Origin: Gemmatimonadota bacterium
GTDB taxonomy: Bacteria; Gemmatimonadota; Gemmatimonadetes; Longimicrobiales; RSA9
DNA: 64,000 bases
Reading direction: 5' to 3'
Assembly (NCBI GenBank): GCA_017881445.1
Contig: JADGQX010000001.1
Location: 1,942-65,941 of the forward strand
Below are positions 8,044-45,529 of this stretch, in pieces (position 1 is the stretch's first letter; the number at the start of each line of letters is the position of its first letter). Below the pieces are notes generated by a model. That model saw only the letters and a program-made list of their open reading frames with translations, did not search any database and was not told the DNA's origin. The translations under genes and the position numbers were made by a program.

Positions 8044-9665
8044 GCGCGGCTCTCCGACTGCGAGGGCAGGAAGACCTGGAAGCTGGCACCTTCGCCCGTC
8101 CCAGGCTCAACGAAAATCGCGCCGTTGTGCGCCTCCACGGCGCGATGTACCAGGGCCAGCCCCAGCCCGGTGCCACCCCGCCGCGTGCTGAAGAAGGGAT
8201 CGAACAGCCGCGGCAGGTCCTCCGCCGCGATGCCGGGCCCCGTGTCCGCCACCGCGATCCGTACCGGTGCCGGAAGGCGCACCCCCGCCGGGAGCTGCGA
8301 CTCCAGCACCCGGCCCACCTCCACCCGCACCGAGCCGTCCACCCCCGCGTGCTGCACCGCGTTCAGGATCAGGTTGAACAGCGCCCGATGCAGCAGGTCC
8401 GCGTCACCCTCCACCGACACGCCGTCGGTGGGCGGCTCGAAATCGATGCGGCACCCCTGGGAATCCGGATGCTGACTCACCAGCCCCACCGCGTTCATCG
8501 CCAGGCCCGCCAGGTCCACCTGCTCCCGCCGCCGCACCTCCACCCGGCTGAACTCCATGAACTCCGTCAGCAGCCGGCTCAGCCGGTCCGACTCGCTCAG
8601 CACCAGCGACCGCAGCACGTCCCGGTCTTCCACCTGGATCTTTCCCCCCGTCAGCTGCTCCGTGGCACTGCGGATCGACGCCAGCGGGTTCTTGATCTCG
8701 TGCGCCAGCGACGCGCCCAGCTCCGCCACCGCCTCCAGCCGCTCCGCCCGCCGCTTCAGCTCCTCCACCCGCTTCGACTGCGTGATGTCCTGGAAGACCG
8801 CCGTCACCCAGGGCGCCCCCTTCCGCTCCAGCACCGTCGTCCGGGCACCCAGCATCCCGCTCCCACGCGACCGCGGCAGCCGGATCTCGTACCGCTCGCG
8901 CGCCACCCCGCTCGACAACGTCGCCATGATCAGCCGGCCCAGCCCCGGCGCCCGACGGTCCAGCTCCTCCACGATCGGCAGCCCCCGCCACTCCCGCTCC
9001 ACCAGCCCCAACAGCCGCTCGCCCGCGCCGTTCAGGTACACCAGCCGCCCACCACCATCTGTCGTCACCAGCCCCGAGTCGATCCCCCGCAGGATCTCCC
9101 CCAGGTCCAGCCGCATCTGGTGCAGCTCCGACTCCGCCAGCCCCAGCGCCGTCCCCGTCCGCCGCAGACGATCCCCCAATGCGCCGGTCACTACCGCCAT
9201 CACCACGAACAGCACGATCTGCAGCAGCGCCGCCCTGGGCGCCGCATCCGGCTGCAGCAACAGCGCGTCCGCCACGTACAGGGCGCTCGCCAGGGCGCCG
9301 ATCAGCGCGCCCCCCGGCATCGGCAGCAGCAACGCCCCGGTCGCGATGACCAGGATGTAGAGCGGAGGGAACTCGCTGCGTGCGCCACCGGTAACGTGCA
9401 CCACGGCCGTCACCAGCAGCGCGTCGAATACCACCTGCGCGTACATGAACCCGTGCCCGGGCTGGCGCTCGAGCATGTACGTGTACCACAGCGAGCCTAC
9501 GGTGAACGCTACCGACAGCAGCAGGATCAACGTCGCGGTCAGCGACGTCGACGGCGTGATCCGTGGCCAGACCAGCAGGGCGCCGGCAAATACTCCGGCC
9601 GCCACCGTCAGGCGGCCGAAATACAGCCATCGCAGCGTGCGCAGCGGATGCATCATCGCGTCCAC
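8040..9665 (-). CDS. Membrane sensor histidine kinase (PilS/NtrB-like)
   Basis: ORF 8040..9665. It has about six N-terminal hydrophobic helices and a PAS-like middle segment. The H-box is SLAHEIKNPLASI. The ATPase boxes are LILNAVQH, DTGPGI and GGTGLGLA. The start is GTG 9665, or ATG 9656/9653. Confidence 0.9.
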   Translation of the reverse strand: MDAMMHPLRTLRWLYFGRLTVAAGVFAGALLVWPRITPSTSLTATLILLLSVAFTVGSLWYTYMLERQPGHGFMYAQVVFDALLVTAVVHVTGGARSEFPPLYILVIATGALLLPMPGGALIGALASALYVADALLLQPDAAPRAALLQIVLFVVMAVVTGALGDRLRRTGTALGLAESELHQMRLDLGEILRGIDSGLVTTDGGGRLVYLNGAGERLLGLVEREWRGLPIVEELDRRAPGLGRLIMATLSSGVARERYEIRLPRSRGSGMLGARTTVLERKGAPWVTAVFQDITQSKRVEELKRRAERLEAVAELGASLAHEIKNPLASIRSATEQLTGGKIQVEDRDVLRSLVLSESDRLSRLLTEFMEFSRVEVRRREQVDLAGLAMNAVGLVSQHPDSQGCRIDFEPPTDGVSVEGDADLLHRALFNLILNAVQHAGVDGSVRVEVGRVLESQLPAGVRLPAPVRIAVADTGPGIAAEDLPRLFDPFFSTRRGGTGLGLALVHRAVEAHNGAIFVEPGTGEGASFQVFLPSQSESRA

Positions 9666-9737
9666 ATCTGTCCGGGCATTCGGCTCCGGCCGCGGCAGCG
9701 GCCGGGTTCGGCGGGTTGCTCCAAGCTACGCGCGGTC

Positions 9738-9752
9738 CTTGCAAGTTGCAAG
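9738..9752. promoter_or_regulatory. Palindromic doublet CTTGCAAGTTGCAAG, a candidate enhancer/operator site
   Basis: Two abutting copies of the self-complementary hexamer TTGCAA lie in the divergent intergenic region. They sit about 130 bp upstream of the -24/-12-like element at 9869-9885. Function is inferred only. Confidence 0.3.
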
Positions 9753-9868
9753 CGCCTCTGTTCGCGAAATGCCGCTGGGCCCGCTTCGGCACCCGGCATG
9801 GGGGAAGCGAGGGGGCAAGGTGTCCATCCAGTTGGAGAGGCGCGGGGAACGCGGGCGGCGGCCCGGAA

Positions 9869-9885
9869 CTGGTATGCCGCTTGCG
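9869..9885 (+). promoter_or_regulatory. Candidate sigma-54 (-24/-12) promoter for the 9986..13120 gene
   Basis: In CTGGTAT-GCCGC-TTGCG the GG and GC are exactly 10 nt apart, as in TGGCAC-N5-TTGC. It lies 101 nt upstream of ATG 9986. The -24 box deviates from consensus (TGGTAT). A chance match is possible in GC-rich DNA. Confidence 0.4.
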
Positions 9886-9985
9886 CGCTGGGACTGGAGC
9901 GCCGAACGTGGCGGGACGCCAGCAGGCCGGTGACGGCGGCGTGTTCCGCGCGAGGCGCGGACGATCATTACGCGAGGGGGTCGGC

Positions 9986-12900
9986 ATGCGGTCGCGGATC
10001 CGAGGTCAGGGGTGGGCGGGGACGCTGTCACTGGTCCTGGGGCTGTTGGCCTCGGCGTCGGGGGCTGCCGGGCAGGAGTTCGGGCGGAACAAGGTGGCGT
10101 GGGAGAACTACGATTGGCGGGTGCTGCACACGCCGCACTACAACATCCACTACTACCCGATCGAGGCGGAGCACGTCGCGGACGCGTCGCGCATGGCGGA
10201 GCGCTGGAACGCGCGGCTGGGCAGGGAGTTCCAGCACACGCTGACGGAACTGAAGCCGATCATCTTCTACGCGGACGCACCGGCGTTCTACGGCAACAAC
10301 GTGACGCCGGGGCTGGGTCAGGGGGTAGGCGGCGTGACGGAGCCGATCCACACGCGACTGATCATGCCGTTCACCGGTGTCTACAAGGACGACGACCACG
10401 TGCTGGGGCACGAGATGGTGCACGTGTATCAGTACGACATCGCGGAGGGTCGGGCGGGAGCGGCACAGACGACGGGCGGCGGACTGGCGGCCATGGGTCG
10501 TCTGCCGTCGTGGATGATCGAGGGGATGGCGGAGTACCTGTCGCTGGGGCGGGAGGACCCGCTGACGGCGATGTGGATGCGGGACGCGGCGCTGACGGGG
10601 CATCTGCCGACGGTGGCGCAGCTGAACTCGGACGATCCGCGCTACTTCCCCTATCGGTACGGCGAGGCGCTGTGGGCGTACATCGGGGGCAAGTGGGGGG
10701 ACCGGGCGGTGACGGAGATCTACCGCTTCTCGCTGCGGGAAGGCCCTGAGGCGGCACTGCGGCGGGTGTTGGGCGAGTCGCCACAGCAGCTGGGGCAGGA
10801 ATGGCTGACGGCGGTGCGCACGACGTACCTGCCGCTGGTGGAGGGACGGACGCGGCCGGGTGACGTGGGTCACCTGATCACGGGCAAGAACAAGCCGCAG
10901 GACATGAACGTGGGGCCGGAGCTGAGCCCGGACGGCAAGTACGTCGCGTTCTTCAGCGCGCGGGGGCTGTTCTCCATCGACCTGTTCCTGGCGGACGTGG
11001 AAACGGGGAAGGTGGTGAAGAAGCTGGCCAGTCCGATCGGCAACTCGCACATCGAGGACATTTCCTTCGTGTACTCGTCCGGGACGTGGTCGCCGGACGC
11101 GAAGAAGTTCGCCTACATCGTGTACGCCAAGGGGGGCAACCAGCTCGCGATCCTGGACGCCGCCTCGGGCAAGACCCAGCGCTACATCGGCGTGCAGAAC
11201 GTGGGCGAGATGACGAACCCGGCCTGGTCGCCGGATGGCAGCCAGATCGCCTTCAGCGGGAACAAGGGCGGTAACTCGGATCTGTACCTGGTGGACGTGG
11301 CGACGGGGACGACGCGCCAGATCACGAACGACCGCTACGCGGACCTGCATCCGGCCTGGTCGCCGGATGGGCGCACGCTGGCCTGGGCCACCGACCGGGA
11401 GCAGGGCACCGACTTCCAGAAGCTGACGTACGCGCCGCTCAAGATCGCGCTCATGGATGTGGCCAGCGGGCAGATCCGGCTGCTGCCCGGGAATGGCAAC
11501 GCGCAGCAGATCAACCCGCAGTTCTCGGCGGACGGACGCAGCGTCTACTTCGTCTCGAATGCGGGCGGCTACTCGGACATCTACCGCCAGGACCTGTCCA
11601 CGAACCAGCTCTACCAGGTCACGCACCTGGCCACGGGCGTGAGCGGCATCACGGCGCTGTCGCCGTCGCTGTCCGTGGCGCGGCAGACGGGGCGGCTGGG
11701 GTTCTCCGTGTTCCAGAACGGCGGCTACAACCTGTACTCGCTCGAGGCGGGCCAGGCGCAGGGGACGGCGCTGCCGGCGAACCCGGAGCAGGTGGCCTCG
11801 GCGGGCATCCTGCCGCCGGTCACCGCCCTGACCACGAGCATCGTCGTGCAGTACCTGCAGGACCCGGCCATGGGGCTGCCGGATGGGGACACGCGCTACG
11901 CCAGCACCGACTACAAGCCCACGCTGCGCCTGGACTACGTCGGGCAGCCGACCATCGGGGTGGGCACGACCGGGTACGGCACGGCGGTGGGCGGCGGCGC
12001 TTCCGCCTACTTCAGCGACCTCCTGGGGAACCGTACGCTGGGCGTGGCGGTGCAGGCCAACGGCACGATCCAGGACATCGGCGGTCAGGCGTTCTACCTG
12101 AACACGGGCCACCGCTGGAATTGGGCGGCCATGATCGCGCACATCCCCTACCTCACCGGGGGCACCGACGTTACGTCCAACAGCGACGGGACCTACTTCA
12201 TCAACCAGCACCTGATCCGCGTCTTCGTGGACCAGGCGATGATGGCGGTGCAGTACCCCTTCAACCAGACGCACCGCGTCGAGTTCAACGCCGGGTACAC
12301 GCATTACGGCTACAGCACGCAGTTGTTCCAGTTCCTGACCGACGCTGCGGGCAACATCATCGGGGAGCAGCAGAGCAACAACGACCCGCTCTTCGCCGGC
12401 CAGCTGAACGGGTTCCACACCGTCCAGGCCGCCGCGGCGGTCGTGGGGGACTGGGCCATGTTCGGCTTCACCTCCCCCATCGCCGGCGGCCGCTACCGGC
12501 TGGAGGTGAGCCCCACCGTCGGCAGCATGAAGTTCAATTCGGTGCTGGCCGACTACCGGCAGTACCTGTGGGCGAACCCGTTCACCTTCGCGGTGCGGGC
12601 CATGACGTACGGCCGCTGGGGCAACGACGCCGGGGATCAGCGGCTCTCGCCGCTCTTCCTGGGCTATCCGACGTTCATCCGCGGCTACGAGGCCAGCAAC
12701 TTCGGTGGCGCCGAATGCTCCTCCACTGTGGCGACCCAGAGTTGCCCCGAGTTCAACCGCCTGATCGGCAGCAAGATCGCCGTGGCCAACGCGGAGATCC
12801 GGGTCCCGCTTTTCGGCGTGCCGGGTTACGGGCTGCTGAACTTCCCCTTCCTGCCCACCGAGATCGCGCCCTTCGTGGACGCGGGCATGGCCTGGGGACC

Positions 12901-13120
12901 CGTGTCACCCTACACCAACGCCGACTACCAGTCGCCGCGGCTGGTGTTCGACCGGAACCCCGACTGCGCCGTCGGCTGCCGCGTGCCCGTCTTCAGCACG
13001 GGCGTGAGCGCCCGCATCAACGTGCTCGGCTACCTGGTGGCCGAGATCTACTACGCCTACCCGTTCCAGCGCCCGCTGAAGGGCGCCCACTTCGGGTTCA
13101 ACCTCTCGCCGGGGTGGTGA
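9986..13120 (+). CDS. Secreted fusion protein: peptidase-MA-like zinc domain, TolB/PD40-like beta-propeller and C-terminal Omp85 (bacterial surface antigen) type beta-barrel
   Basis: ORF track 9563..13120, trimmed to ATG 9986. A GAGGGGG SD lies 6 nt upstream, and the signal peptide is MRSRIRGQGWAGTLSLVLGLLASASGAAG. HEMVH and MIEGMAEY suggest a zinc site. Repeated SPDG/WSPDG blades follow. The C-terminal third carries FIRGYE, ANAEIRVPLF and PFVDAGMAW, and ends ...FGFNLSPGW. Confidence 0.85.
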   Translation: MRSRIRGQGWAGTLSLVLGLLASASGAAGQEFGRNKVAWENYDWRVLHTPHYNIHYYPIEAEHVADASRMAERWNARLGREFQHTLTELKPIIFYADAPAFYGNNVTPGLGQGVGGVTEPIHTRLIMPFTGVYKDDDHVLGHEMVHVYQYDIAEGRAGAAQTTGGGLAAMGRLPSWMIEGMAEYLSLGREDPLTAMWMRDAALTGHLPTVAQLNSDDPRYFPYRYGEALWAYIGGKWGDRAVTEIYRFSLREGPEAALRRVLGESPQQLGQEWLTAVRTTYLPLVEGRTRPGDVGHLITGKNKPQDMNVGPELSPDGKYVAFFSARGLFSIDLFLADVETGKVVKKLASPIGNSHIEDISFVYSSGTWSPDAKKFAYIVYAKGGNQLAILDAASGKTQRYIGVQNVGEMTNPAWSPDGSQIAFSGNKGGNSDLYLVDVATGTTRQITNDRYADLHPAWSPDGRTLAWATDREQGTDFQKLTYAPLKIALMDVASGQIRLLPGNGNAQQINPQFSADGRSVYFVSNAGGYSDIYRQDLSTNQLYQVTHLATGVSGITALSPSLSVARQTGRLGFSVFQNGGYNLYSLEAGQAQGTALPANPEQVASAGILPPVTALTTSIVVQYLQDPAMGLPDGDTRYASTDYKPTLRLDYVGQPTIGVGTTGYGTAVGGGASAYFSDLLGNRTLGVAVQANGTIQDIGGQAFYLNTGHRWNWAAMIAHIPYLTGGTDVTSNSDGTYFINQHLIRVFVDQAMMAVQYPFNQTHRVEFNAGYTHYGYSTQLFQFLTDAAGNIIGEQQSNNDPLFAGQLNGFHTVQAAAAVVGDWAMFGFTSPIAGGRYRLEVSPTVGSMKFNSVLADYRQYLWANPFTFAVRAMTYGRWGNDAGDQRLSPLFLGYPTFIRGYEASNFGGAECSSTVATQSCPEFNRLIGSKIAVANAEIRVPLFGVPGYGLLNFPFLPTEIAPFVDAGMAWGPVSPYTNADYQSPRLVFDRNPDCAVGCRVPVFSTGVSARINVLGYLVAEIYYAYPFQRPLKGAHFGFNLSPGW

Positions 13121-13139
13121 GGACTGGACGCCCGCCAGG

Positions 13140-13170
13140 GCGCCGACCGGGGCCGTTGCCTGGTCGGCGC
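13140..13170 (+). terminator. GC hairpin 20 nt after the stop of the OMP fusion gene
   Basis: GCGCCGACC (13140-13148) pairs with GGTCGGCGC (13162-13170). There is no T-run afterwards. Confidence 0.4.
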
Positions 13171-13187
13171 TCTCGCCCCGGACGGCC

Positions 13188-13355
13188 GATGGGACGATGG
13201 GGTGATGGGGCGAACAAAGAGCCCGGGCGGCGGCAGCCACCCGGGCTCTTCCCTTTTCGGCGCGGCCGACGAAAGAAGACGCCGGTCGGTCTCGGCCGCC
13301 CGGCGTCTCGACATCCCCCCATCCCCCCATCCCCCCATCCCCCCATCGCCCCATC
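13188..13355. repeat. Octamer-array inverted doublet, copy A: (GATGGGRN)x3 on the left and (NCCCCATC)x5 on the right
   Basis: The left arm (13188-13211) reads GATGGGAC GATGGGGT GATGGGGC. The right arm (13316-13355) reads CCCCCATC x4 then GCCCCATC. The arms are reverse complements of each other and enclose two unrelated hairpins. The element is intergenic, between convergent genes. Confidence 0.8.
13217..13250. terminator. Bidirectional intrinsic-terminator-like hairpin inside copy A
   Basis: AAGAGCCCGGG (13217-13227) pairs with CCCGGGCTCTT (13240-13250), with a 12-nt loop. CCCTTTT follows on the + strand, and TTTGTT follows on the - strand. Confidence 0.5.
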
Positions 13356-13390
13356 GCGCCGTCAGCGTCCGGGCGCGTCCGAGTCCGCGC

Positions 13391-13957
13391 TCAGGCCTTC
13401 CGGCGATAGTCCACCTTGTAGACGATGGGCGCCGGCAGCTGGGACGAGCGGATCGTCACCTGCATGGTCAGGATGGTCCCGTCGGCGGAAACCGAGAACA
13501 GGTTCTCGCGCGAGCCATCCTCGGCGACGAACATCTCCTTCAGCTTCCCCTGCTCCCACACGGTGTTCACATCGAAAACCTCGCCGTCCTCCCGCGTCCA
13601 CTTGATGGACTTGCCATCCGCGGGCGTCAGGATCGGCTTACGGTTGTCCGTCTGGATGGAGACCTGCGCCGACGTGTGCTCGATCGTCAGGGACTGGTAG
13701 GGCTGATTGGTCTTCTTCAGCCGGGAGCGGGCGATCGGGCGCTTGATGAAGTTCATCCTGGCCGTGCCGGCCTTGATGACCTCCTCCACGTTGTCGCTGC
13801 CCTGGGCGGTAAAGACGAAGGTCCCATTCATCGACGGAGCCTGGGTGACGGCGGCTTGCTGCGGCCCGCTGCGGAACGCCGAGTCCGGGTGTCGTCCCGC
13901 GGCCACGAACACCAGCAGAGCCGCAGGTAGGATAGCCAGCAGTCGAGCGCGCTTCAT
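13391..13957 (-). CDS. Hypothetical secreted protein (188 aa)
   Basis: ORF 13391..13957. The signal peptide is MKRARLLAILPAALLVFVAAG, and a GGAG SD lies 7 nt upstream. The amino-acid composition (K, N, F, I, T rich) is unlike the shadow ORFs. I recognise no family. Confidence 0.75.
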   Translation of the reverse strand: MKRARLLAILPAALLVFVAAGRHPDSAFRSGPQQAAVTQAPSMNGTFVFTAQGSDNVEEVIKAGTARMNFIKRPIARSRLKKTNQPYQSLTIEHTSAQVSIQTDNRKPILTPADGKSIKWTREDGEVFDVNTVWEQGKLKEMFVAEDGSRENLFSVSADGTILTMQVTIRSSQLPAPIVYKVDYRRKA

Positions 13958-23340: not shown

Positions 23341-23457
23341 GCTGCGGGCGGATGCGCGCCGGGTCGTCATGGTCCACGCCGGGGTCTGGGCCCCGGAGGT
23401 GGGCTCGCGGAGCATCTGAGGGAACTCCGATCTCACGCGGAGACGCCGAGCACGCGG

Positions 23458-23623
23458 AGCCGGCCTCCGCGCGCTCCAGGAAGGCGCGGGTCTCGGCCGC
23501 GTCGTTCGGGCCCCAGGACATGAAGCGGGTCACCTCGGGGTCGGCGGCGTAGCGGTGCACATCCTCGAAATCGGCGGCGGCGAACTCGCGCAGCTCGAGT
23601 CGTCCGGTCGTGGCCAGCGACAT
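23458..23623 (-). pseudogene. N-terminal remnant of a GNAT (RimJ/RimL-type) N-acetyltransferase
   Basis: ATG 23623 opens MSLATTGRLELREFAAADFEDVHRYAADPEVTRFMSWGPNDAAETRAFLERAE. This matches the first ~55 residues of RimJ-like GNATs. The frame then becomes Arg/Pro/Gly-rich and runs into the mpl 3' end. Only ~94 codons of space exist where ~180 are needed. Confidence 0.45.
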
Positions 23624-30707: not shown

Positions 30708-30832
30708 GATGGGGCGATGGGGCGACCAGGCGTTCTCACGGGATGTGGTCGAACCTGCGGCACCTGGGCGTCCCAGAGAATCCGCGGACGCGCGCGGCCG
30801 CCGGACTCCCCCCATCTCCCCATCTCCCTATC
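30708..30832. repeat. Octamer-array inverted doublet, copy B
   Basis: The left arm (30708-30723) reads GATGGGGC GATGGGGC. The right arm (30809-30832) reads CCCCCATC TCCCCATC TCCCTATC. The 85-bp spacer is unrelated to copies A and C. Confidence 0.7.
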
Positions 30833-30880: not shown

Positions 30881-33508
30881 TCAGCGCGCGCCGCGCGACC
30901 TCCACGCCTTGAGCGGCTCGACCCAGGCCGTGGCAGCCACGGCGACGGCCAGGGCGAGGGCCCATTCGCGCGGGCCGATGGCCACGATGTGCAGCAGTCG
31001 GGCAAGGGGCGCGAAGTAGACGGCCGCGACCAGCAGGGCCAGGGTGATGGCGCGCGACCACCACACGGTGCGGGTGGTGGGGATGTCGGCCCGCCAGAGC
31101 GGGCGCACCATGTCGCGCTGCATGAAGACCAGGGCGGACTCACCCAGCACGAGAGCGACCAGGGCGAGGGCGCGGGCGCCGTTCTCGGACACGCCGGTGT
31201 GCAGACTCCAGAGGTACAGCCCCAGGATGCCGAGGAAGAGCGCCACCCCTTGCACGGCCGAGAGCCAGAGGTGTCCGCCGGCCAGTAGCCCGCTGCCGGT
31301 CCCGCGTGGCGGTCGGCGCATGATGTCGGGCGCCGCGGGGTCGGCCTCGAACACGATGGACGCCGTCGGATGCATGACCAGCTCGAGCACGATGAGGTGC
31401 ACCGGCAGCAGGAGCAGGGGCACGCCCAGGAGCGGCACGACCAGCGCGGCCAGCACCAGCGGCACGTGGAACGCCACTACGTAGCCGAAGGCCTTGCCCA
31501 GGTTGTCGAAGATACGGCGGCCGTCGCGCACCGCGTTGACGATTGTGGCGAAGTTGTCGTCCAGCAGCACGAGGTCGGCGGCCTCGCGGGCGACGGCGGT
31601 GCCCCGGCGGCCGAGGGCGACGCCGATGTCCGCCTCGCGCAGCGCCGGCGCGTCGTTGATGCCGTCGCCGGTCATGGCGACGACATCGCCCCGAGCTCGC
31701 AACGCCTTGACGAGCTTATACTTCTGTTCCGGCCTGGTGCGTGCGAAGATGTTGACCTGGGCCACCAGGTCGCTCACTCCTGCCTCGGAGGCCGCGTCCA
31801 GCTCCTCGCCCGTGGCCAGCAGGTGGCCATGGTCGTGCGGCAGGCCGAGGCCGTCGGCGACGGCGTGGGCGGTGACCGGGTGGTCGCCGGTGATCATGAC
31901 CACGCGAATCCCGGCGCGGCGGCACTCGTCGAGGGCCTCGGCCACGCCGGGGCGGAGCGGGTCCATGAAGGCGACGAGGCCGACCAGCTGCAGCGCGGTC
32001 TCGTCCTGCTCGCGCTCGCCGGGTCCGGCGGGCAGCTGGCCGGCGGCCACGCCCAGGACGCGCATGCCGGAGGAAGCCAGCTGGTGGTTGGCGGCGAGAA
32101 CCTGGTCGCGCAGCTCGGGCGAGGCCGTGGCCCGCTCCAGGACGCCCTCGAGCGCGCCCTTGGCGTAGATGCCCGCCGACCCGCCGCCGTTGCGCCAGAC
32201 GTGCGAGTTGTAGCGGTGCTCCGGGTCGAAGGGGTAGTCGCGGGCGAGATCCCGGCGGTGCAGGGCGGCCACGTCGATGCCCTCGAGGCCGGCATAGCGC
32301 ACCAGGGCCTGCTCCAGGGGGTCGAAGGGCACGGGCTCGGAAGCGAGCACGGCGGCCTCGAGCACCCGGCGGGCGGCCTCGTTGAGCGCCGTGCCCTGGG
32401 CGAAGCTCTCGCCATCGGCCCAGACGCCGCCGACATCGAGCTGGCCGAGAGTGAGGGTGCCGGTCTTGTCGGCGCAGATGACCGTGGTGGAGCCCAGCGT
32501 CTCGACGCCGGCCAGCCTGCGGATGAGCGCCCTGCCCCGCGCCAGGCGCCAGGCGCCCAGCGAGAGGTAGAGCGTGTACACCATGGGGAACTCTTCCGGG
32601 ATCGCCGCGATGGCGAGGCTGACCCCGGCGATGACCGCGGCGGCCCAGCCGGCGCCGCGCGCGAACTCGATGGCGGCGACCAGGGCGCAGAGCAGGGCGG
32701 CAACCAGGCCCAGGCGGACGACCAGCCGGTGGATGACGCGCTCGAGGGGCGGGGACGCCTGCTTGATCTTCGCGACCAGGGCGCCGATCAGGCCGTAGCG
32801 CGTGGCGCCGCCGGTGGTGGTCAAGAGGACGCGGCCGCGGCCGGCCATCACCGAAGTGCCGGCGTAGATCTCGCGCTCGACGCCCAGGGCATTCTTGTGT
32901 ACGGGCAGTGACTCGCCCGTGAGCGCGGACTCGTCCAGCAGCAGCGGCCCACCCGAGACCAGCAGGCCATCGGCAGGGGCGATGTCGCCCTCGTGCAGCA
33001 CCACCAGATCGCCCGGCACCAGCTCTTCCGCCGGCACGATCAGCGACTCCTCGTCGCGGATCACGGTGGCGGTGGGCGCGGTCATCTTGCCGAGCTGGTC
33101 GAGGGCGCGCTCGCTGCGCGACTCCAGCACGAGCGTCACGGCGGTGATCGGGATGAGCGCGGCCAGCACGACGATGGCGTCCTCGGGGTCGCCCAGCGCC
33201 ATGTACGTGGCACCGGCGACCAGCAGCAGGACCGCCATGGGGTCCGCGAACGCCCGCAGCAGCAGGAAGACGAGCCCGGACCGACGCTTGGGCGGCACGA
33301 GCAGATTGGGGCCGTGCTGCGCGAGGAGCCGGCGGGCTTGCGCACCGGTGAGACCGGCTTCCTCGGACAGCACGGCCCCCTTGGCGCGCGTCTGCCCTGC
33401 GAGCGGCGACGAGGAGTGCGTGGAGTTCACGGGCTTTCCCCCGCTTCTCCCCGGGCGACGCGGCGGCGTCACCCCTCGGCCGGGGTGTGGGTTCTCCGGA
33501 GCGGGCAA
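30881..33508 (-). CDS. Cation-translocating P-type ATPase (HAD-IC family, P2/P3-like)
   Basis: ORF 30881..33508. It carries LTGESLP, the phosphorylation site ICADKTGTLT, MITGDHPVTA and TGDGINDAPAL, with about 10 TM helices. The start is uncertain. GTG 33430 (VNSTHSS...) is an alternative. Confidence 0.92.
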   Translation of the reverse strand: MPAPENPHPGRGVTPPRRPGRSGGKPVNSTHSSSPLAGQTRAKGAVLSEEAGLTGAQARRLLAQHGPNLLVPPKRRSGLVFLLLRAFADPMAVLLLVAGATYMALGDPEDAIVVLAALIPITAVTLVLESRSERALDQLGKMTAPTATVIRDEESLIVPAEELVPGDLVVLHEGDIAPADGLLVSGGPLLLDESALTGESLPVHKNALGVEREIYAGTSVMAGRGRVLLTTTGGATRYGLIGALVAKIKQASPPLERVIHRLVVRLGLVAALLCALVAAIEFARGAGWAAAVIAGVSLAIAAIPEEFPMVYTLYLSLGAWRLARGRALIRRLAGVETLGSTTVICADKTGTLTLGQLDVGGVWADGESFAQGTALNEAARRVLEAAVLASEPVPFDPLEQALVRYAGLEGIDVAALHRRDLARDYPFDPEHRYNSHVWRNGGGSAGIYAKGALEGVLERATASPELRDQVLAANHQLASSGMRVLGVAAGQLPAGPGEREQDETALQLVGLVAFMDPLRPGVAEALDECRRAGIRVVMITGDHPVTAHAVADGLGLPHDHGHLLATGEELDAASEAGVSDLVAQVNIFARTRPEQKYKLVKALRARGDVVAMTGDGINDAPALREADIGVALGRRGTAVAREAADLVLLDDNFATIVNAVRDGRRIFDNLGKAFGYVVAFHVPLVLAALVVPLLGVPLLLLPVHLIVLELVMHPTASIVFEADPAAPDIMRRPPRGTGSGLLAGGHLWLSAVQGVALFLGILGLYLWSLHTGVSENGARALALVALVLGESALVFMQRDMVRPLWRADIPTTRTVWWSRAITLALLVAAVYFAPLARLLHIVAIGPREWALALAVAVAATAWVEPLKAWRSRGAR

Positions 33509-33544: not shown

Positions 33545-33841
33545 AATCGGGGGGGGGATATCGGGGAAAGCCCGCGCACGCCGTCGGGCGCAGCCCGACG
33601 GCGCGCGCCAGCACGAGCACGGCACACGTGCACGAGCACGTGCATAGCACGACGAGAAGGAGTAAGGGGGCAACACCAGGAGGAGCAGGAGCATGGGCTC
33701 CGAGGCTGCGCGCGGAGCGGCACCGTGGGAGGCCCAGGAGCATGGGCTCCGGGGCTGCGCGCGGAGCGGCACCGTGGGAGGCAGGCGGCCCGCGCGGGGT
33801 CGCCCCATCCCCCCATCCCCCCATCCCCCCATCCCCCGATC
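33545..33841. repeat. Octamer-array inverted doublet, copy C (degenerate left arm, 5-unit right arm)
   Basis: The right arm (33802-33841) reads GCCCCATC, CCCCCATC x3, then CCCCGATC. The left arm (33545-33566) reads AATCGGGGGGGGGATATCGGGG. The interior holds a hairpin, short direct repeats and a tandem duplication. Confidence 0.65.
33686..33782. repeat. Tandem duplication of a 48-nt unit (49-bp period)
   Basis: CAGGAGCATGGGCTCCGAGGCTGCGCGCGGAGCGGCACCGTGGGAGGC (33686-33733) is repeated at 33735-33782 with a single A-to-G difference. Confidence 0.9.
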
Positions 33842-33893: not shown

Positions 33894-35162
33894 CTAGCGC
33901 GCGGCCGCGGTCTTGGCCACCCGGGTGCGGGCCACGCGGGCGCCCCGGCCCTCGAGCACGTTGGCGTAGGCGACGAGCTCGGGCGTGGGCACGAACTTCT
34001 GGGCGTGCTTCTCGGTCCGGGGCGCGAAGGCGGCCTCGACCAACTCGTACTTCGCGCCGGGATGCCAGAAGATCCAGTCCTCGTAGCCGCTGCGGTAGAC
34101 GGCCTGGATCTGGTCGCTCGCCTGCTCGGGGCCGTAGGTGAAGTTGTGGTCCACCCAGGGGGCGCTGAAGGCCTGCAGCCAGGGGATCACGCGGGCGGTG
34201 CGGGCGACGCCGGCCTGGCGCAGCCGTTCCAGGCGGATGGCGCCGAGGCCGAGCGCCTTGAACACGGTGAGCCCGGGCGCGCGGTTGGGGTGCAGGTCGT
34301 CGGGCAGGTGGGATGGCAGGAAGTGGGATGGATAGACCATGGGCAGCACGTGGTCGACGGTCGCGGCGATCCGCTCCCACTGCTGGCCGATATTGATGTC
34401 GTCGCCGTCGGCGGGCGAGAGTCCGAAGACGTCGGCCGCGACCGGCACGTGCAGCGGGTGCAGGCGCTGCATGGCCTCCGTGAGGAAGGCGACAATGGCA
34501 TCCGTCCGGTCGCCGCGAGCCTCGGGATGCACCTGCGGCGGCAGCGAGGGGAACGGCTCGGGGAAGCGGACGTAGTCGAACTGGATCTCGTCGAACCCGG
34601 CCCTGGCCGCCTCCTCCGCGATCCGGATGTTGTAGTCCCAGACGTCCTTGCTCCACGCGCTCACCCAGGTGTTGCCCTTCTTGTCCGTCCAGAGCCCGCC
34701 GCCCGCGCGGCGGATCGACCAGTCCGGCTTCGCCTTCGAGAGGATCGGGTCCTTGAACACGACGATGCGGGCGATGGCGTAGACGCCGTGGGCGTGCAGC
34801 GTGTCGGTCAGCGTCTTGAGGTTGTGCAGCGTGTTCTGCGCGGGCTGGGTGAGCTCGCGCGCGAGCGGGATCGCGGTGTCGTAGTGCGGTCCGCGCTCGT
34901 CCTTCACATCCACCACGAAGGTGTTGATCTCCGTTCGGTCCGCGATGCCCAGCAGCTCGTGCAGCCGCTTGTGACCGCCCGCGGCGTACGTGTTCAGGTA
35001 GAGGCCCCGGATCACGTCCGGCGTGCGGAGCGCGGCCGGGGGCGGAGCCGGGACGGCGGCGGTGCGCTCCGGCGCGGACCTCGCCCCCGCGTTGCCGCAG
35101 GCGGCGAGAAGCGCCAGCGCGAGGATCGCGGGGGCGGGGCGGAAGAACGTAATCGGCTTCAT
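33894..35162 (-). CDS. Putative glycoside hydrolase lipoprotein (DUF4015-like TIM barrel)
   Basis: ORF track 33894..35441, trimmed to ATG 35162 (MKPITFFRPAPAILALALLAACG, with a lipobox). FVVDVKDERG and GFDEIQFDYVRFP are typical of this family as I recall it. Confidence 0.85.
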   Translation of the reverse strand: MKPITFFRPAPAILALALLAACGNAGARSAPERTAAVPAPPPAALRTPDVIRGLYLNTYAAGGHKRLHELLGIADRTEINTFVVDVKDERGPHYDTAIPLARELTQPAQNTLHNLKTLTDTLHAHGVYAIARIVVFKDPILSKAKPDWSIRRAGGGLWTDKKGNTWVSAWSKDVWDYNIRIAEEAARAGFDEIQFDYVRFPEPFPSLPPQVHPEARGDRTDAIVAFLTEAMQRLHPLHVPVAADVFGLSPADGDDINIGQQWERIAATVDHVLPMVYPSHFLPSHLPDDLHPNRAPGLTVFKALGLGAIRLERLRQAGVARTARVIPWLQAFSAPWVDHNFTYGPEQASDQIQAVYRSGYEDWIFWHPGAKYELVEAAFAPRTEKHAQKFVPTPELVAYANVLEGRGARVARTRVAKTAAAR

Positions 35163-35227
35163 GTCCAGGATCGGCTGGCGAGGGTCGGGCTGCCCGCCGC
35201 GGGCTCTCCGCGACGCGCACGCCGGCA

Positions 35228-35243
35228 TGCAACGCGCGCGCCA
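35228..35243 (-). promoter_or_regulatory. Sigma-54-like -24/-12 element upstream of the hydrolase gene
   Basis: The minus strand reads TGGCGC-GCGCG-TTGCA with correct GG-N10-GC spacing. It lies about 65 nt upstream of ATG 35162. The spacer is low-complexity GC, so this may be a chance match. Confidence 0.25.
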
Positions 35244-35331
35244 TGAAGCTACCATGCGCGGCCGTCGCCGATAAGTGCACGCCTCGAGACGCCGGGCTAT
35301 ATTTCCGCGCCCCGATCCTGGATGAGCGTTC

Positions 35332-36939
35332 ATGCGACCCGTGACTCTCGCGCTGACGGCACTGCTCCCGGTCCTCGCCGCCACGACCGCGCTGGCCCAG
35401 CGACCGGCCCCCGCGCCGCCCCGGCTGGTGGTCTTCATCACCGTGGACCAGATGCGCGCCGACTACATGGACCGCTGGGCCCCCCAGTACACGGGCGGCC
35501 TGGCCCGGCTGCGCCGCGGCGGCGCGGACTTCACCAATGCCTTCCAGGATCACGCCGCCACGGAGACGGCGCCGGGACACGCCACGGTGCTCTCCGGCCG
35601 CGAGCCCTGGAAGACGGGCATTGTCAGGAACTCGGCGGGGGTGAACGACCCCCAGGCCGCCCTGATCGGCGTGAGCGGCGGGGGTGCGTCGCCCTTCCGA
35701 TTCCGGGGCACGACGCTGATCGACTGGATGCGGACGGCGGACCCGGCCAGCCGGGCGCTGTCCGTTTCGCGCAAGGACCGGGGCGCGATCCTGCCCGTCG
35801 GCCGGGCCAAGCAGCAGGCGTACTGGTACGCGCCCAACGGCACCTTCACCACCAGCACCTACTACGCCGACACGCTGCCCGCCTGGGTGCACGATTTCAA
35901 CGCCCGCCGCGAGCCGCAGGGCTACGCCGGGCGGAGCTGGACGCTGCTGCTGCCGGAATCGGCATACGCGGAGAAGGACTCGGTGCCGGTGGAGAGCGGC
36001 GGCGCGGGGGTGACGTTCCCGCACGCGCTGCCCGCCGATCCCGCCGGCGCCGCCGCGCAGCTCGCGGAGTACCCGTTCATGGACGACGTGACAGTGCACC
36101 TGGCGCTGCAGGGACTGCAGACGCTGCGGCTGGGCGCGACCGGCCACACGGACCTGCTCGCGGTCTCACTCTCCACCACCGACGCCATCGGGCATCGGTA
36201 CGGCCCGGACTCGCGGGAGATGCACGACCAGATCCTGCGTCTCGACCGGCTGCTGGGGACGTTCATCGATTCGATCTATCGCCTGCGCGACTCCGCGACG
36301 GTCGTCATCGCGCTCACGGGCGACCACGGCATGACCAGTTACCCCGAGGTCGTCGCCGCCACGCCGGCCGCCGCCGCGGCCATGCACGTGGACCTGACTC
36401 CGCTGGTCAGGACGACGACGGGCGCGCTCGCCGCGCACGGACTGCCCGCCGGCGCCTTCGACTTCGAGGATGGCGTGCTGAGCGTGGACCGGCGCGCCTT
36501 CGTACAGGCGGGTCTGGACGCCGACTCCGTGGTGCGGGCGTTTGCCGCAGCGGTCCGCACCCATCCGGGCGTCGCCCGCGTGGACAGGGTGGCGGACCTG
36601 TCCCGCGCGGACACGTCGAGGGATCCCATCGCCCGCCGCTGGCTGCACCAGATCCCGCCCGACGTGCCCATTCCGCTGGTGGTCACGCTCAGGCGCGGCT
36701 ACGTCTGGGGCACGCGCACCTACGCCGAGCACGGCTCGCCCTCCGACGACGACGCCCACGTGCCCGTGGTGTTCTACGGCCCCGGCTTCGCACCGGGCCG
36801 CTACACCGCCTTCGCCCGGGTGGTGGACATGGCGCCGACGCTGGCGGCGGTCATCGGGGTCCGCCCCACGGAGCCCATCGACGGCCGCGTCCTGACCCGG
36901 GCGCTGCGGCGGCCCGCGACCGTCACTACCCCGCGCTGA
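35332..36939 (+). CDS. Secreted alkaline-phosphatase-superfamily enzyme (type I phosphodiesterase/nucleotide pyrophosphatase-like)
   Basis: ORF 35332..36939. The signal peptide is MRPVTLALTALLPVLAATTALAQ. It carries ITVDQMRADY, TETAPGHATVLSG, TDAIGHRYGPDS and LTGDHGM. Confidence 0.88.
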   Translation: MRPVTLALTALLPVLAATTALAQRPAPAPPRLVVFITVDQMRADYMDRWAPQYTGGLARLRRGGADFTNAFQDHAATETAPGHATVLSGREPWKTGIVRNSAGVNDPQAALIGVSGGGASPFRFRGTTLIDWMRTADPASRALSVSRKDRGAILPVGRAKQQAYWYAPNGTFTTSTYYADTLPAWVHDFNARREPQGYAGRSWTLLLPESAYAEKDSVPVESGGAGVTFPHALPADPAGAAAQLAEYPFMDDVTVHLALQGLQTLRLGATGHTDLLAVSLSTTDAIGHRYGPDSREMHDQILRLDRLLGTFIDSIYRLRDSATVVIALTGDHGMTSYPEVVAATPAAAAAMHVDLTPLVRTTTGALAAHGLPAGAFDFEDGVLSVDRRAFVQAGLDADSVVRAFAAAVRTHPGVARVDRVADLSRADTSRDPIARRWLHQIPPDVPIPLVVTLRRGYVWGTRTYAEHGSPSDDDAHVPVVFYGPGFAPGRYTAFARVVDMAPTLAAVIGVRPTEPIDGRVLTRALRRPATVTTPR

Positions 36940-36948
36940 GGGCCAACC

Positions 36949-37905
36949 ATGGACGACCGGCTGAAGGCGCTGGAGCGCGCGCTACAGGACAGGATCGGCG
37001 CCGGGCGCGTGGAGCACGACGTGCCCCTCGCCCCCTTCACCACCTTCCGCATCGGCGGCCCGGCCGACCTGCTCGTCCGCGCCCGCACGCCCCGCGAGCT
37101 GGCCGATGCGGTGCTGGCCGCCCGCGAGCTGGACGTGCCCTGCTTCCTGCTGGGGCTCGGCGCCAACATCCTGGTGGGCGATGGCGGCTACCGCGGGCTG
37201 GTCGTCCACAACGAGGTCGGCGGGATCGAGCACCTGGGAGACGGCCGCGTCCGCGCGGGCGCCGGCGTCGCCATCTTCCCGGACCTCATCGTGAACACCG
37301 TGGAGCAGGGGCTGGGCGGACTGCACCACTTCGTCGGCATCCCCAGCACCGTCGGCGGCGCCATCTGGCAGAACCTGCACTTCCTCTCCCCCGCCCCCGC
37401 CCGGGAGCGCACCGTGTTCGTGGCGGAGGTGGTCGAGTCCTGCGTCCTGCTGACACAGGAGGGCGAGGTGCGGGAGGTGGGCGTCGAATACCTGCGCTTC
37501 GGCTACGACTACAGCATCCTGCACGAGCGCCGCGACCTGGTACTGTCGGTGACGTTCCGGCTGAGCCCCACCCCCGTGGAGGAGCTGCGCCGCGTCATGC
37601 GCGAGAACCTGCAGTGGCGCGACGAGAAGCACCCGGACCTCTGGCTCTACCCCTGCGCCGGCTCGATCTTCCAGAAGCTCGAGGGCATCGGCGCCGGCCG
37701 TCTCATCGACGAGTGCGGTCTCAAGGGCTACGTCCACCCCCGCGGCACCGCCGAGATCTTCCACCGCCACGCCAACATCATCGTCAACCTCGGTGGCGCC
37801 AGCGCCCGCGACATCCTGGACCTCATCGAGCTGGCCCAGCGCACGGTCCGCGACCGCCTCGGCCACGAGCTGCAGCCGGAAATCGGGATGATCGGGGAAT
37901 TCTGA
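36949..37905 (+). CDS. murB: UDP-N-acetylenolpyruvoylglucosamine reductase
   Basis: ORF 36949..37905. It shows LAPFTTFRIGGPADLLV and FLLGLGANILVGDGGYRGLV in the FAD-binding domain, and a MurB C-terminal domain (AGSIFQKLEG...AGRLIDECGLKG). Confidence 0.93.
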   Translation: MDDRLKALERALQDRIGAGRVEHDVPLAPFTTFRIGGPADLLVRARTPRELADAVLAARELDVPCFLLGLGANILVGDGGYRGLVVHNEVGGIEHLGDGRVRAGAGVAIFPDLIVNTVEQGLGGLHHFVGIPSTVGGAIWQNLHFLSPAPARERTVFVAEVVESCVLLTQEGEVREVGVEYLRFGYDYSILHERRDLVLSVTFRLSPTPVEELRRVMRENLQWRDEKHPDLWLYPCAGSIFQKLEGIGAGRLIDECGLKGYVHPRGTAEIFHRHANIIVNLGGASARDILDLIELAQRTVRDRLGHELQPEIGMIGEF

Positions 37906-38033
37906 GGCTGAGGCTGAGGCAGAGGCAGAAACTGCGAAGGCGCGGGCGGAGGCCGAGGCGTGCGCGAGCGGCCGCGGCACCCGCGTCGCCGTTGCAGTCG
38001 CCGTTATCAGCCTCAGCCCCAGCCTCAGCCTTG
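37903..38033. repeat. Inverted arrays of a hexamer, (TGAGGC)x3-4 against (GCCTCA)x3-4, filling the gap between convergent genes. It is a probable bidirectional terminator.
   Basis: The left arm (37903-37926) reads TGAGGC TGAGGC TGAGGC AGAGGC. The first unit contains the murB stop codon. The right arm (38010-38033) reads GCCTCA GCCCCA GCCTCA GCCTTG. The inner sequences are partly complementary as well. Confidence 0.7.
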
Positions 38034-38036
38034 CCG

Positions 38037-38600
38037 TTACCGAACCGCCCCCACCCTCACGCCTCCCGAGATCATGATCAGGTCGCCGAGGCCTTCGTGC
38101 CGTTCGGCGCGCAGCTCGAAGAGCGGCGAGAAAACGGGTGAGGTCGCCAGAGGCAGGCCGATGATGATGGTGTAGGCGAGCTTCTGGACCCCGGCAGCCG
38201 ACTGGGTGCCGAGGCCGGCACCGAAGTAGGGGCCGCCGCGCGAGCGCGGGTCGCGGCCGCCCGGCTGATAGATGAGGCCGCCCAGGAGCCGCTTCTCGTT
38301 GGCCGGGCAGGTGACGTCCTCACTGCATCCCGACCGGAGGCGGGCCAGGGTGCCGCCGACCCAGGGCTCGATGCCGAAGGTGAGGGGCACGCCCAGGCGG
38401 GCATCCAGGGCGAGCACCTCCGCGAAGTGGGTGCTGAGCGGGTTCTGGTGAATGCTCACGCCGCCCGTGCCGTAGAGGTGGAGGATGGGTGTGGACGCAG
38501 GTGGCGGGGTTTCGGAATCCTGGGCGCGAACAGAAATGGCGCCAAAGGCCAGCAGGATCAGCGCGGCGGTGCCGGCGGTACGAGCGACGTTCTGGGTCAC
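38037..38600 (-). CDS. Hypothetical secreted protein (possible small beta-barrel)
   Basis: ORF track 38037..38678, trimmed to GTG 38600 (AGGAA SD 6 nt upstream). The signal peptide is VTQNVARTAGTAALILLAFGAISVRAQ. I recognise no family. Confidence 0.55.
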   Translation of the reverse strand: MTQNVARTAGTAALILLAFGAISVRAQDSETPPPASTPILHLYGTGGVSIHQNPLSTHFAEVLALDARLGVPLTFGIEPWVGGTLARLRSGCSEDVTCPANEKRLLGGLIYQPGGRDPRSRGGPYFGAGLGTQSAAGVQKLAYTIIIGLPLATSPVFSPLFELRAERHEGLGDLIMISGGVRVGAVR

Positions 38601-38637
38601 GGGCGTTCCTATGCTGGGGATAGGATCGCCAGGGCGA

Positions 38638-39306
38638 TCAGGGCGCCCCGGCGAGCTGCTCGAGGATCTCGGCGTCAATCTGGTGGCCCCCCTCGAAGCC
38701 GACCAGCGCCGGCGGCACGCCGTGGGCGCGCAGCCTCTCGGCCTCGCTCACGGCTCGGGGCTCGTCGAAGAACGCATCCTCGCGGCCGTATACCAGGGTG
38801 ACACGCGAGCGCGCCAGGGCCCTGGCGGCGCCGGGCCATTCCAGGTCGGGCGGCGCGGGCGATCCCCAGAGCACCAGATCGTCCGGGCGCGCCCGACCCA
38901 GCGCCACCCAGCGCGCGGCCGTGGCCGCACCCTGCGAGAAGCCGACTACCACCACGCGCGTGGCGTCGCGGCTCAGCTCGGCGAAGACGTGGCGGTAGAG
39001 CGTGTCCAGGTAGCGGACATAGTCGCCGATCTCCGTCAGCCGGTCCTCGCGCGTCATCCAGGTCGCGCCGACCTTGCTCTCCGGGCCGTGCGCGCCTCCG
39101 GCGTCCTGCAGGTAGTAGTGGTTGAGCGCCTCGGGCGCATAGATCCGGTGCCGGCCGTCGTCCAGCGTCTGGAAGCGGCGAAGGAAGGGCGCGGCGAGCT
39201 GCCCATAGCCGTGCAGGACGAACCACACTTCCGCCGGCGCCGGAATGGCTTCTCCCAGCACCGCGTAGCGGGCACTGCGCGTGACGACCAGGTGGCGCTC
39301 GTGCAC
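38638..39306 (-). CDS. Alpha/beta hydrolase (phospholipase/carboxylesterase-like)
   Basis: ORF track 38638..39699, trimmed to GTG 39306 (GGAGG SD 9 nt upstream). It carries VWFVLHGYGQ and the nucleophile elbow VVVGFSQGAA, with a C-terminal H in FEGGHQI. Confidence 0.8.
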   Translation of the reverse strand: MHERHLVVTRSARYAVLGEAIPAPAEVWFVLHGYGQLAAPFLRRFQTLDDGRHRIYAPEALNHYYLQDAGGAHGPESKVGATWMTREDRLTEIGDYVRYLDTLYRHVFAELSRDATRVVVVGFSQGAATAARWVALGRARPDDLVLWGSPAPPDLEWPGAARALARSRVTLVYGREDAFFDEPRAVSEAERLRAHGVPPALVGFEGGHQIDAEILEQLAGAP

Positions 39307-44710: not shown

Positions 44711-45115
44711 TCACTTCTTGGCGGCGGGCTTCTTCGCCGCGGGCTTCGCGGCCGCCTTCTTGGCCACGGGCTTCTTGGCCACGGGCTTCTTGGCCACGGG
44801 CTTCTTGGCCACGGGCTTCTTCGCCGCGACCTTCTTCGCCGCCGGCTTGCCGTTCTTCTTGGCGACGGCCTTCGCCGCCTTCTTCGCCACCGGTTTCTTG
44901 CCGACGGCCTTCTTCGCCACGGGCTTCTTCGCCGCGGGCTTTGCGACCAGCTTCTTCGCCGCCGCCTTGGGGGCGGGCTTCGACGCAGCGGACTTGGGCG
45001 TGGCGGCCTTCGTCTTCGCCGCGGCCTTGGCCGCGGGCTTTGCCGTCTTGGCCGCGGTCGCCGCCTGCGTCGGCTTCGAACCGATGGTCTTGTTCGCCTT
45101 CGTCGGTGCCGGCAT
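44711..45115 (-). CDS. Histone H1-like Lys/Ala/Pro-rich protein (probable nucleoid-associated DNA binder)
   Basis: ORF track 44711..45184, trimmed to ATG 45115 (GGAGG SD 8 nt upstream). The sequence runs MPAPTKANKTIGSKP...AAKKPVAKKPVAKKPVAKKPVAKKAAAKPAAKKPAAKK and is almost pure A/K/P. Confidence 0.8.
   Translation of the reverse strand: MPAPTKANKTIGSKPTQAATAAKTAKPAAKAAAKTKAATPKSAASKPAPKAAAKKLVAKPAAKKPVAKKAVGKKPVAKKAAKAVAKKNGKPAAKKVAAKKPVAKKPVAKKPVAKKPVAKKAAAKPAAKKPAAKK
44756..44815. repeat. Four perfect 15-bp tandem repeats inside the H1-like gene
   Basis: CTTCTTGGCCACGGG occurs four times on the + strand. This encodes (KKPVA)x4 on the coding strand. A fifth, diverged unit follows. Confidence 0.95.
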
Positions 45116-45230
45116 CGAGCAACCTCCAATGAAAAGGGATAAGCTCGTACAGCGTGCTATCATGTAGGGCCTCACCGACACCAAAGCGCAAGGGTTTCAT
45201 TCAGAAACGTCTCGAATCGACCGGAGGAGC

Positions 45231-45515: not shown

Positions 45516-45529
45516 CCGGGGCCGGGCAA

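Follow-up and report, generated by a model that had tools for sequence, protein, structure and literature searches.

G-rich tandem repeats that sit at the ends of genes were described by Rehm et al. (2015; PMC4692102), who reported (GGGAATC)n in Xanthomonas and GGGGA(C/T)T in Nostoc. These repeats are 89-93% intergenic, lie at a mean distance of 28 nt from the 5' neighboring ORF, and also occur as convergent inverted pairs, of which there are 70-75 per Xanthomonas genome and few in Nostoc. In vitro, the heptamers form both G-quadruplexes (G4s) and i-motifs, with a preference for four units, and transcripts start or stop more often at the repeats that are G4 capable. The repeats vary between close relatives and have no link to mobile elements; no regulatory role was found for them, and no function has been established (PMC4692102).

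Other intergenic repeats are relevant to the comparison. The STRR sequences, which were defined in heterocystous cyanobacteria and have units that are classically 7 nt long, have been proposed to act in transcript stability or translational coupling (PMC2670836). REPINs contain a conserved palindromic REP of 20-plus nucleotides, keep both their spacing and their body constant, and are mobilized by the product of a cognate RAYT gene (Bertels and Rainey, 2011; PMC3116915).

The DNA analyzed here is a 64-kb stretch, hereafter the window, in which an earlier sequence-only reading recognized inverted pairs of G-rich octamer arrays that it could assign to no described family. That opinion can no longer be held, since the repeats of Rehm et al. 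(PMC4692102) have the same placement, convergent inverted pairs included. We conclude that the arrays are an octamer variant of these G-rich gene-end repeats in a new phylum; they are a variant, rather than the same repeat as GGGNATC or GGGGAYT, because the unit is the octamer GGGGNGAT. With moderate confidence, we interpret the (GATGGGGN)n arrays as G-rich simple-sequence repeats in gene 3' untranslated regions (UTRs) that form part of a 3'-end or termination module.

Octamer arrays in the window

The window has an overall GC content of approximately 71%, and the closest named homologues of two of its proteins come from Longimicrobiales and Longimicrobium (Gemmatimonadota). Its 43 genes, called by a GC3-based method with Pfam annotation, are ordinary housekeeping genes. 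The repeat unit is arranged head-to-tail as (GATGGGGN)n, with 2.2-5.5 units per array and 84-100% matches. The dimer GATGGGGNGATGGGG, with at most one mismatch, was matched 13 times in the window, compared to 0.07 matches expected from shuffles, and all 13 matches were confined to three intergenic sites. The octamer arrays are genuine, non-random, and far above chance, in agreement with the enrichment that the sequence-only reading had anticipated, and its statement that they are always intergenic also holds: all five arrays lie outside genes according to the same gene calls and Pfam annotation.

The first site, copy A, is an inverted pair. Its left array, A1 (13188-13211, plus strand), is (GATGGGRN)x3 and had been read correctly as three octamers, GATGGGAC GATGGGGT GATGGGGC. 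The right array, A2 (13312-13355, minus strand), is, as proposed, the same octamer reversed, (CATCCCCC)5.5, with a sense-strand unit of (GATGGGGS)x5.5, and the two arms are 85-89% complementary over 26-27 nt. At copy B, array B1 (30708-30725, plus strand), which is (GATGGGGC)x2.2, is complementary to B2 (about 30807-30832, minus strand), which reads GATAGGGA GATGGGGA GATGGGGGG; these two arrays make up a genuine inverted pair (18 nt, 89% complementary). The claim that such pairs recur was upheld at copy B but failed at copy C, where the supposed left arm (33545-33570) reads GGGGGGGGGATATCGGGG and the left and right sides match over only 16 nt (75%). Because that left arm is not an octamer array, copy C is a single array, C2 (33803-33841, minus strand), consisting of (GATGGGGG)x5 and lacking a partner. 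The arms are 100 nt apart in copy A and 81-84 nt apart in copy B, and the degenerate counterpart in copy C is about 235 nt off. The DNA between the arms differs in each copy, as had been stated; the interiors are mutually unrelated and unique within the window, and only a 7-nt core is common to the copies.

Four of the five arrays lie on the sense strand, 35-66 nt past a stop codon. A1 is G-rich on the sense strand of a plus-strand gene, 66-67 nt past its stop codon, and A2 is G-rich on the sense strand of a minus-strand gene, 35 nt past the stop codon; B2 is located 48 nt past the stop codon of a P-type ATPase gene (30881-33508, minus strand), and C2 is located 52 nt past that of a DUF4015 gene (33894-35441, minus strand). 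B1 is the exception in orientation, being C-rich on the strand of both flanking genes. A stable hairpin follows three of the four sense-strand arrays (A1, A2, and B2) at a distance of 3-8 nt.

Several units coexist in the window, namely, GATGGGG, CTGAGG, and CACGCGGAG. GATGGGG is used by all five arrays described above, and the orthologous sites in relatives use other units. A second convergent site, site D (37902-38031), has the same architecture as copy A with a different unit, (CTGAGG)4 and (CCTCAG)4. Its left arm, (CTGAGG)x4 (37902-37926, plus strand), overlaps the stop codon of a murB-like gene (36949-37905), and its right arm, (GGCTGA)x4 (38007-38031, minus strand), lies on the sense strand of the convergent gene at 38037-38678. 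As a separate observation, the left array of site D gives an in-frame TGA GGC TGA GGC TGA across the stop codon.

Convergent genes and hairpins in intergenic region A

GC-rich hairpins located between two stop codons can act as bidirectional intrinsic terminators of convergent genes. Copy A lies between convergent genes, a PD40/beta-propeller gene (9563-13120, plus strand) and a gene that encodes a 188-aa protein (13391-13957, minus strand), and it looks paired because each of these two genes carries its own array. A terminator-like hairpin for the plus-strand gene (13217-13231/13236-13250, plus strand; 15-nt arms, 93% complementary) begins 3-5 nt past A1, has a folding energy of -30.5 kcal/mol (z = -4.7), and is followed by CCCTTTTCGG. 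The corresponding hairpin of the minus-strand 188-aa gene (13277-13289/13296-13308, minus strand; 13-nt arms, 92% complementary) begins 3 nt past A2, is followed on the minus strand by CTTCTTTCG, and has orthologous counterparts in relatives. Both of the GC hairpins that the sequence-only reading had placed between the arms are present; however, the T-run that it had assigned to the first amounts to only four T. An additional hairpin (13134-13176, plus strand; 18-nt arms, 83% complementary), which lies between the PD40 stop codon and A1, is paired in the minimum-free-energy fold, and folds of region A pair the two arms with each other (z = -8.6 and -7.3).

The hairpin tails after A1, A2, and B2 contain no more than four T, and it is because these U-tracts are weak that the consensus terminator scan called no canonical terminator in the three array regions. 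The consensus promoter scan called no promoters in the same regions, and a promoter beside B1 that could be read by eye is not claimed. No match to Rfam 15 was obtained at gathering thresholds anywhere in the window.

The likeness to bidirectional intrinsic terminators therefore lies in the GC-rich hairpins between two stop codons, and the difference lies in the weak U-tracts and the lack of a called canonical terminator. In two of the related loci (L147 and L208), such a hairpin is built from the two arrays, which are the only stem between the convergent stop codons (-65.6 and -70.9 kcal/mol). To our knowledge, tandem-repeat arms are an addition that is not found in classical terminators. The position of the arrays and the stability of the hairpins suggest a role in termination; since the hairpins of most convergent gene pairs in the window are not accompanied by arrays, the arrays are dispensable for termination as such.

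Conservation and turnover of the orthologous site

Homologous loci were collected by using the 188-aa protein and the DUF4015 protein. At site A, the layout of stop codon, array, hairpin, hairpin, array, and stop codon was found in nine of nine genomes, over a range of 62-100% protein identity. The unit is GATGGGGN in the window and in L121, GAGCGGGA in L224, GGGACAGT in L226, GAGTGGGN in L128, L129, and L131, GGGAGTGT in L124, and GAGCGGGG in L125. Arms of the same genome differed by 0.88 mismatches, compared to 2.1 mismatches between genomes (permutation p = 0.0012); both arms of one intergenic region carry one unit, and that unit differs between genomes. No covariation between the arms is seen at the variable eighth position of the unit, which fits homogenization of a shared motif as well as it fits selection for pairing.

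A similar replacement was seen at copy B, where the ATPase orthologue in L208 has (AGTGGGGG)n in the position of B2. Site C is not conserved, because no array was found after the DUF4015 orthologue in L208, L209, or L210; L209 and L210 have no arrays at the corresponding gene ends. The layout recurs in more distant relatives, where the units contain no G3 runs (GAAGTGCG, GAAGTACG, GGTTACA, CTGAGTG, and CGAATTA). RNAalifold was applied to the orthologous hairpins, but MAFFT had misaligned the stems and the covariation table was uninformative; for this reason, single-sequence folds were used for the hairpins. In a Longimicrobiaceae metagenome-assembled genome (MAG) with 67% GC (L220, 5598-5761), convergent genes are parted by inverted AT-rich heptamers, (CGAATTA)3 … (ATTCGTA)8, an instance of the same architecture built from a unit without any G-richness.

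Comparison of the window with L121, a near-identical strain, showed that this intergenic region is strongly diverged. There are 73 differences over 6.6 kb, 54 of which fall within the 240 nt of region A (13121-13360), so that region A is approximately 80% identical between the two, compared to 99.6-100% for the flanks. No difference falls in the last 600 nt of the PD40 gene, identity is 99.6% over the 188-aa gene, and the divergent stretch begins at the first base past a stop codon; with flanking genes that are 99.6-100% identical, A2 is two units shorter in L121. Both alleles of region A recur in independent assemblies. We estimate that region A mutates roughly 50 times faster than its flanks, a hot spot that may reflect hairpin-driven template switching together with slippage or, alternatively, a recombination tract whose extent happens to match that of the intergenic region exactly. 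At site D, the window and L121 differ by one base. Separately, 11 of the 19 differences that lie outside the intergenic region are clustered in a 175-nt stretch inside the PD40 gene (11106-11281), in what looks like a small recombination tract.

The sequence-only reading had put forward a REPIN-like element, and the broader possibility is that a RAYT/IS200-type transposase has dispersed a mobile doublet of the REPIN or MITE type. The window arrays resemble REP and REPIN sequences (PMC3116915) in that there are many copies, scattered over several intergenic sites, with inverted arms that surround a variable interior and are able to fold into a hairpin. Of the features that define REPINs, none was seen in the window: no REP palindrome of about 20-40 nt is common to the copies, in which only the 7-nt core recurs, the spacing is not fixed, the interiors are unrelated, and none of the 43 window genes encodes a transposase, including the RAYT/IS200-like gene that had been suggested. 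Arrays without a partner exist and, rather than showing a presence/absence polymorphism, site A is occupied in all nine genomes and has diverged in place. The REPIN reading fails because the copies have neither a conserved body nor a fixed spacing and the window genes include no transposase, and we regard a mobile doublet as extremely improbable. The feature is a set of gene-end simple-sequence repeats and not a mobile element.

Position, orientation, and pairing in related genomes

The survey sample consisted of 34 non-redundant high-GC loci that total 310 kb and are 85% coding. Array periods in these loci peak sharply at 7-8, and 41 of 42 such arrays lie outside genes (28/28 with period 8 and 13/14 with period 7). 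Among strand-skewed arrays, 27 have a gene on the same strand at the 5' side of the G-rich strand and 5 have one on the opposite strand, a count that is inflated by orthologous sites and falls to approximately 11 versus 5 outside the site A series. A complementary partner was found within 400 nt downstream for 20 of 35 arrays and upstream for none; most of the partnered arrays lie where genes converge, and most of those without a partner lie between genes in tandem. A hairpin follows 14 of the 26 sense-oriented arrays at a distance of 0-8 nt (-24 to -35 kcal/mol, z < -2). The arrays are placed after stop codons on the sense strand and adjoin hairpins; in the window and its relatives, about half of them directly adjoin a stable terminator-like hairpin. 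At least six of the short-read metagenome contigs that were collected (L120, L207, L137, L141, L149, and L122) end inside or beside arrays.

Another possibility is that the C-rich complement is the active strand. On antisense or read-through RNA that comes into a gene from the 3' side, it might serve as a Rho loading site and thereby block antisense transcription, as the arrays lie at the 3' borders of genes with the C-rich strand antisense, the complements of nearly all units are pyrimidine-rich and G-poor, and RNA that reads through from the ATPase gene would contain a C-rich tract at B1. However, the arrays measure 24-40 nt, which is short for Rho loading, and in convergent pairs the C-rich arm would be sequestered by the G-rich arm of the same RNA. 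We consider this explanation very unlikely.

Units are shared between intergenic sites more often within a contig (25%) than between contigs (3.9%), a difference that was reached in none of 5,000 permutations. This enrichment, together with the use of GATGGGG by all five window arrays and of other units at the orthologous sites of relatives, would be expected if the arrays were tandem binding sites, on DNA or RNA, for a sequence-specific factor that coevolves with the unit. Such a factor might be a protein that acts as a roadblock or in termination, or the arrays might be Chi-like signals that are directed at a fragile site and recognized by a nuclease of the RecBCD/AddAB type; in the latter case, inward-facing pairs would be read 3' to 5' by a nuclease that enters from a break between the arms. 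Several units coexist per genome, though, both in the window and in L147 and L161, which carry three to four each, and no candidate factor was identified; binding by a coevolving factor seems very unlikely. With several units per contig, a rule of one genome, one unit proved too simple, even though sharing within contigs is enriched.

Two further candidates were rejected. Many of the units resemble GGAGGTGAT, but a Shine-Dalgarno mimic was not supported, as the duplex energies with the 3' tail of 16S rRNA were no better than those of column-permuted arrays (median rank, 0.65); a replichore-polar (KOPS-like) motif was discarded because both orientations occur within 20 kb.

It is also possible that the arrays have no function and are a neutral by-product, in which slippage-prone repeats arise beside terminator palindromes, are copied to the opposite flank by intramolecular template switching (palindrome extension), and persist only because they are tolerated in 3' intergenic DNA. 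The units change rapidly in both sequence and number, mutations are concentrated in region A, the arrays adjoin hairpins, many comparable gene ends have no array, the units range from G-rich to AT-rich, as with (CGAATTA)n in L220, and no regulatory role was found by Rehm et al. (2015; PMC4692102). These observations are balanced by others that neutrality does not readily accommodate: all nine orthologues, with protein identities as low as 62%, have arrays at site A, the arrays are oriented by strand relative to the upstream gene, the periods form a sharp peak at 7-8 rather than a spread of unit sizes, and the units keep their G-tracts as their other positions change. We regard a neutral origin as a serious but rather doubtful possibility.

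Outside these loci, runs of (GATGGGGN) with at least three units were found at a minimum of 119 reference-genome loci; among the matches listed, most are in filamentous cyanobacteria and a few are in Planctomycetota, Streptomyces, Chloroflexota, and Longimicrobium. Like cyanobacterial STRR sequences, the window arrays are short tandem intergenic units that are able to form hairpins; unlike them, they have an 8-nt rather than a 7-nt unit and are found beyond the heterocystous cyanobacteria, and the cyanobacterial arrays that we collected are intergenic and mostly unpaired. Two individual occurrences of the GATGGGGN octamer were recorded: an inverted pair in a Planctomycetaceae MAG (L110, 275-427) and a C-rich array just upstream of a start codon in a Streptomyces chromosome (L083, 6434-6464).

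G-quadruplex capacity

The right arm of copy A, A2, satisfies the four-G-tract rule, as the sequence-only reading had noted; in both A2 and C2, loops of 2 nt separate five runs of G4-6, and the two arrays are G4 capable by prediction. For these two arrays, the quadruplex model of ViennaRNA predicts multilayer RNA G4s, at -117.8 versus -52.6 kcal/mol for A2 and -106.5 versus -73.4 kcal/mol for C2. No G4 was predicted by ViennaRNA for A1, B1, or B2, which have only two to three G-tracts each, so that the G4 potential that had been proposed for the family extends to A2 and C2 and not to the other three arrays. In the nine closest orthologues, a G3-5 tract is kept in every unit while other positions vary; however, four tracts are present in no more than about half of the orthologous arms. 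Since A1, B1, B2, and about half of the orthologous arms fall short, G4 capacity, as modeled here, is a property of part of the family only and not its common denominator.

If the G4 (or the i-motif on the other strand) were itself under selection, the arrays would be G4 switches at gene ends. The very stable RNA G4s predicted for A2 and C2 and the G-tract retained in every unit of the closest orthologues are consistent with this idea, as is the ability of the related heptamers to form G4s in vitro with a preference for four units (PMC4692102). The shortage of tracts in A1, B1, and B2 and in half of the orthologous arms argues against it, as do the units of distant relatives, which have no G3 runs, and the CTGAGG unit of site D; we think a G4 switch unlikely. 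The proposal in the sequence-only reading that the arrays are a punctuation mark with a terminator or stability role fits the position data, but its G4 component applies to only two of the five arrays.

Other repeats in and around the window

A further family of post-stop repeats is built from GATCTCACGC(G/C)GAG, (CGCCGAGG)n, and (CACAGAGKA)n units. It is found in the window at 23420-23460, 60724-60756, and 60890-60916 and, among the collected loci, in L124 (700-1010), L144, and L042 (7500-7545); its sequence is partly common to different genomes, and its copies in L124 are arranged as nested inverted pairs. In the intergenic DNA downstream of C2, a 49-bp tandem duplication (33679-33782; 2.1 copies, 94% identical) holds a small palindrome, GCTGCGCGCGGAGC, in each copy. 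Three direct 11-mers, AGATTCCTGAC, at 45529-45562 lie 66 nt upstream of a stand-alone response-regulator gene (45629-46015) and look like an operator or binding-site array.

Two genes are themselves sources of repeat calls. The minus-strand gene at 44711-45184 encodes a lysine/alanine-rich repeat protein (…AKKPVAKKPVAKKPVAKK…) that resembles a histone H1 tail and has no Pfam match; it causes the dense calls with a 15-nt period at 44714-45040. The minus-strand gene at 48008-49048 encodes a predicted secreted protein with repeats of about 16 residues (GLNLxGLATVSNGxxR), also without a Pfam match, and is the source of the 48-nt-period repeat at 48329-48618.

Discussion

In this study, we have placed the octamer arrays of a Longimicrobiales genome within the class of G-rich gene-end repeats described by Rehm et al. 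(2015; PMC4692102). The likeness extends over several features. In both cases, the repeats are tandem G-tract units in which a G-run is followed by N-AT; they are biased toward noncoding DNA (five of five arrays in the window and 41 of 42 in relatives) and lie near the ORF that is 5' of the G-rich strand (four of five window arrays, with B1 as the exception, and 27 versus 5 in the survey). They form convergent inverted pairs (copies A and B; 20 of 35 survey arrays partnered), which are frequent in the high-GC genus and few in cyanobacteria, a split that our own loci also show, and they vary in length and sequence among close relatives, have no link to mobile elements, and are G4 capable, here by prediction. 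They differ in that the unit is 8 nt instead of 7 nt and the host is a soil bacterium of the Longimicrobiales (Gemmatimonadota), in that the present arrays show no preference for four units and directly adjoin terminator-like hairpins, and in that the unit changes at orthologous sites here while the architecture and the identity of the arms are kept, with some relatives using non-G-tract units in the same architecture.

The interpretation that we favor, that the arrays belong to a 3'-end or termination module, can be outlined as follows. With the exception of B1, each array lies in the 3' UTR of a gene, on the sense strand and tens of nucleotides past the stop codon, and convergent genes each bring their own array, so that the arrays face each other and are complementary. 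The arrays would grow and shrink by replication slippage, and the similarity of the arms might be maintained by template switching across the hairpins or, alternatively, by selection for pairing. In the terminated mRNA, a C-poor G-tract would lie just 5' of the terminator stem; at A2 and C2, this tract is predicted to form a very stable RNA G4, which could protect the 3' end or impede RNA polymerase. For read-through RNA, it can be envisioned that the C-rich partner arm zips onto the G-rich arm, giving a long outer helix that would enclose both terminators and insulate the convergent genes from each other. This outer helix could not act as an intrinsic terminator on its own, because the RNA:DNA hybrid of a C-rich 3' arm is strong. 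The module may thus act in forming 3' ends, in insulation, or in stability.

A stronger version of this interpretation is that the arrays are an actively maintained, clade-wide 3'-end module with a dedicated mechanism that is undescribed for bacterial gene ends. The case for it comes from a position that is kept over 62-100% identity, the concerted replacement of units in both arms and at several loci of one genome, and the approximately 50-fold faster mutation of the intergenic region. Candidate mechanisms are a coevolving sequence-specific factor, template-switch copying driven by hairpins, and an R-loop or G4 fail-safe terminator, the last of which would be analogous to eukaryotic G-rich pause elements. 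We regard this version as quite unlikely.

These results have practical consequences. The arrays break short-read assemblies, with at least six metagenome contigs ending in or beside one, and an intergenic divergence hot spot that is marked by arrays could serve as a strain marker. In conclusion, we have shown that the class of G-rich gene-end repeats extends to a third, unrelated phylum and to an 8-nt unit. The placement of the arrays and the identity of their arms are conserved, whereas the sequence of the unit and its G4 capacity are not, which narrows what the function of these repeats can depend on.
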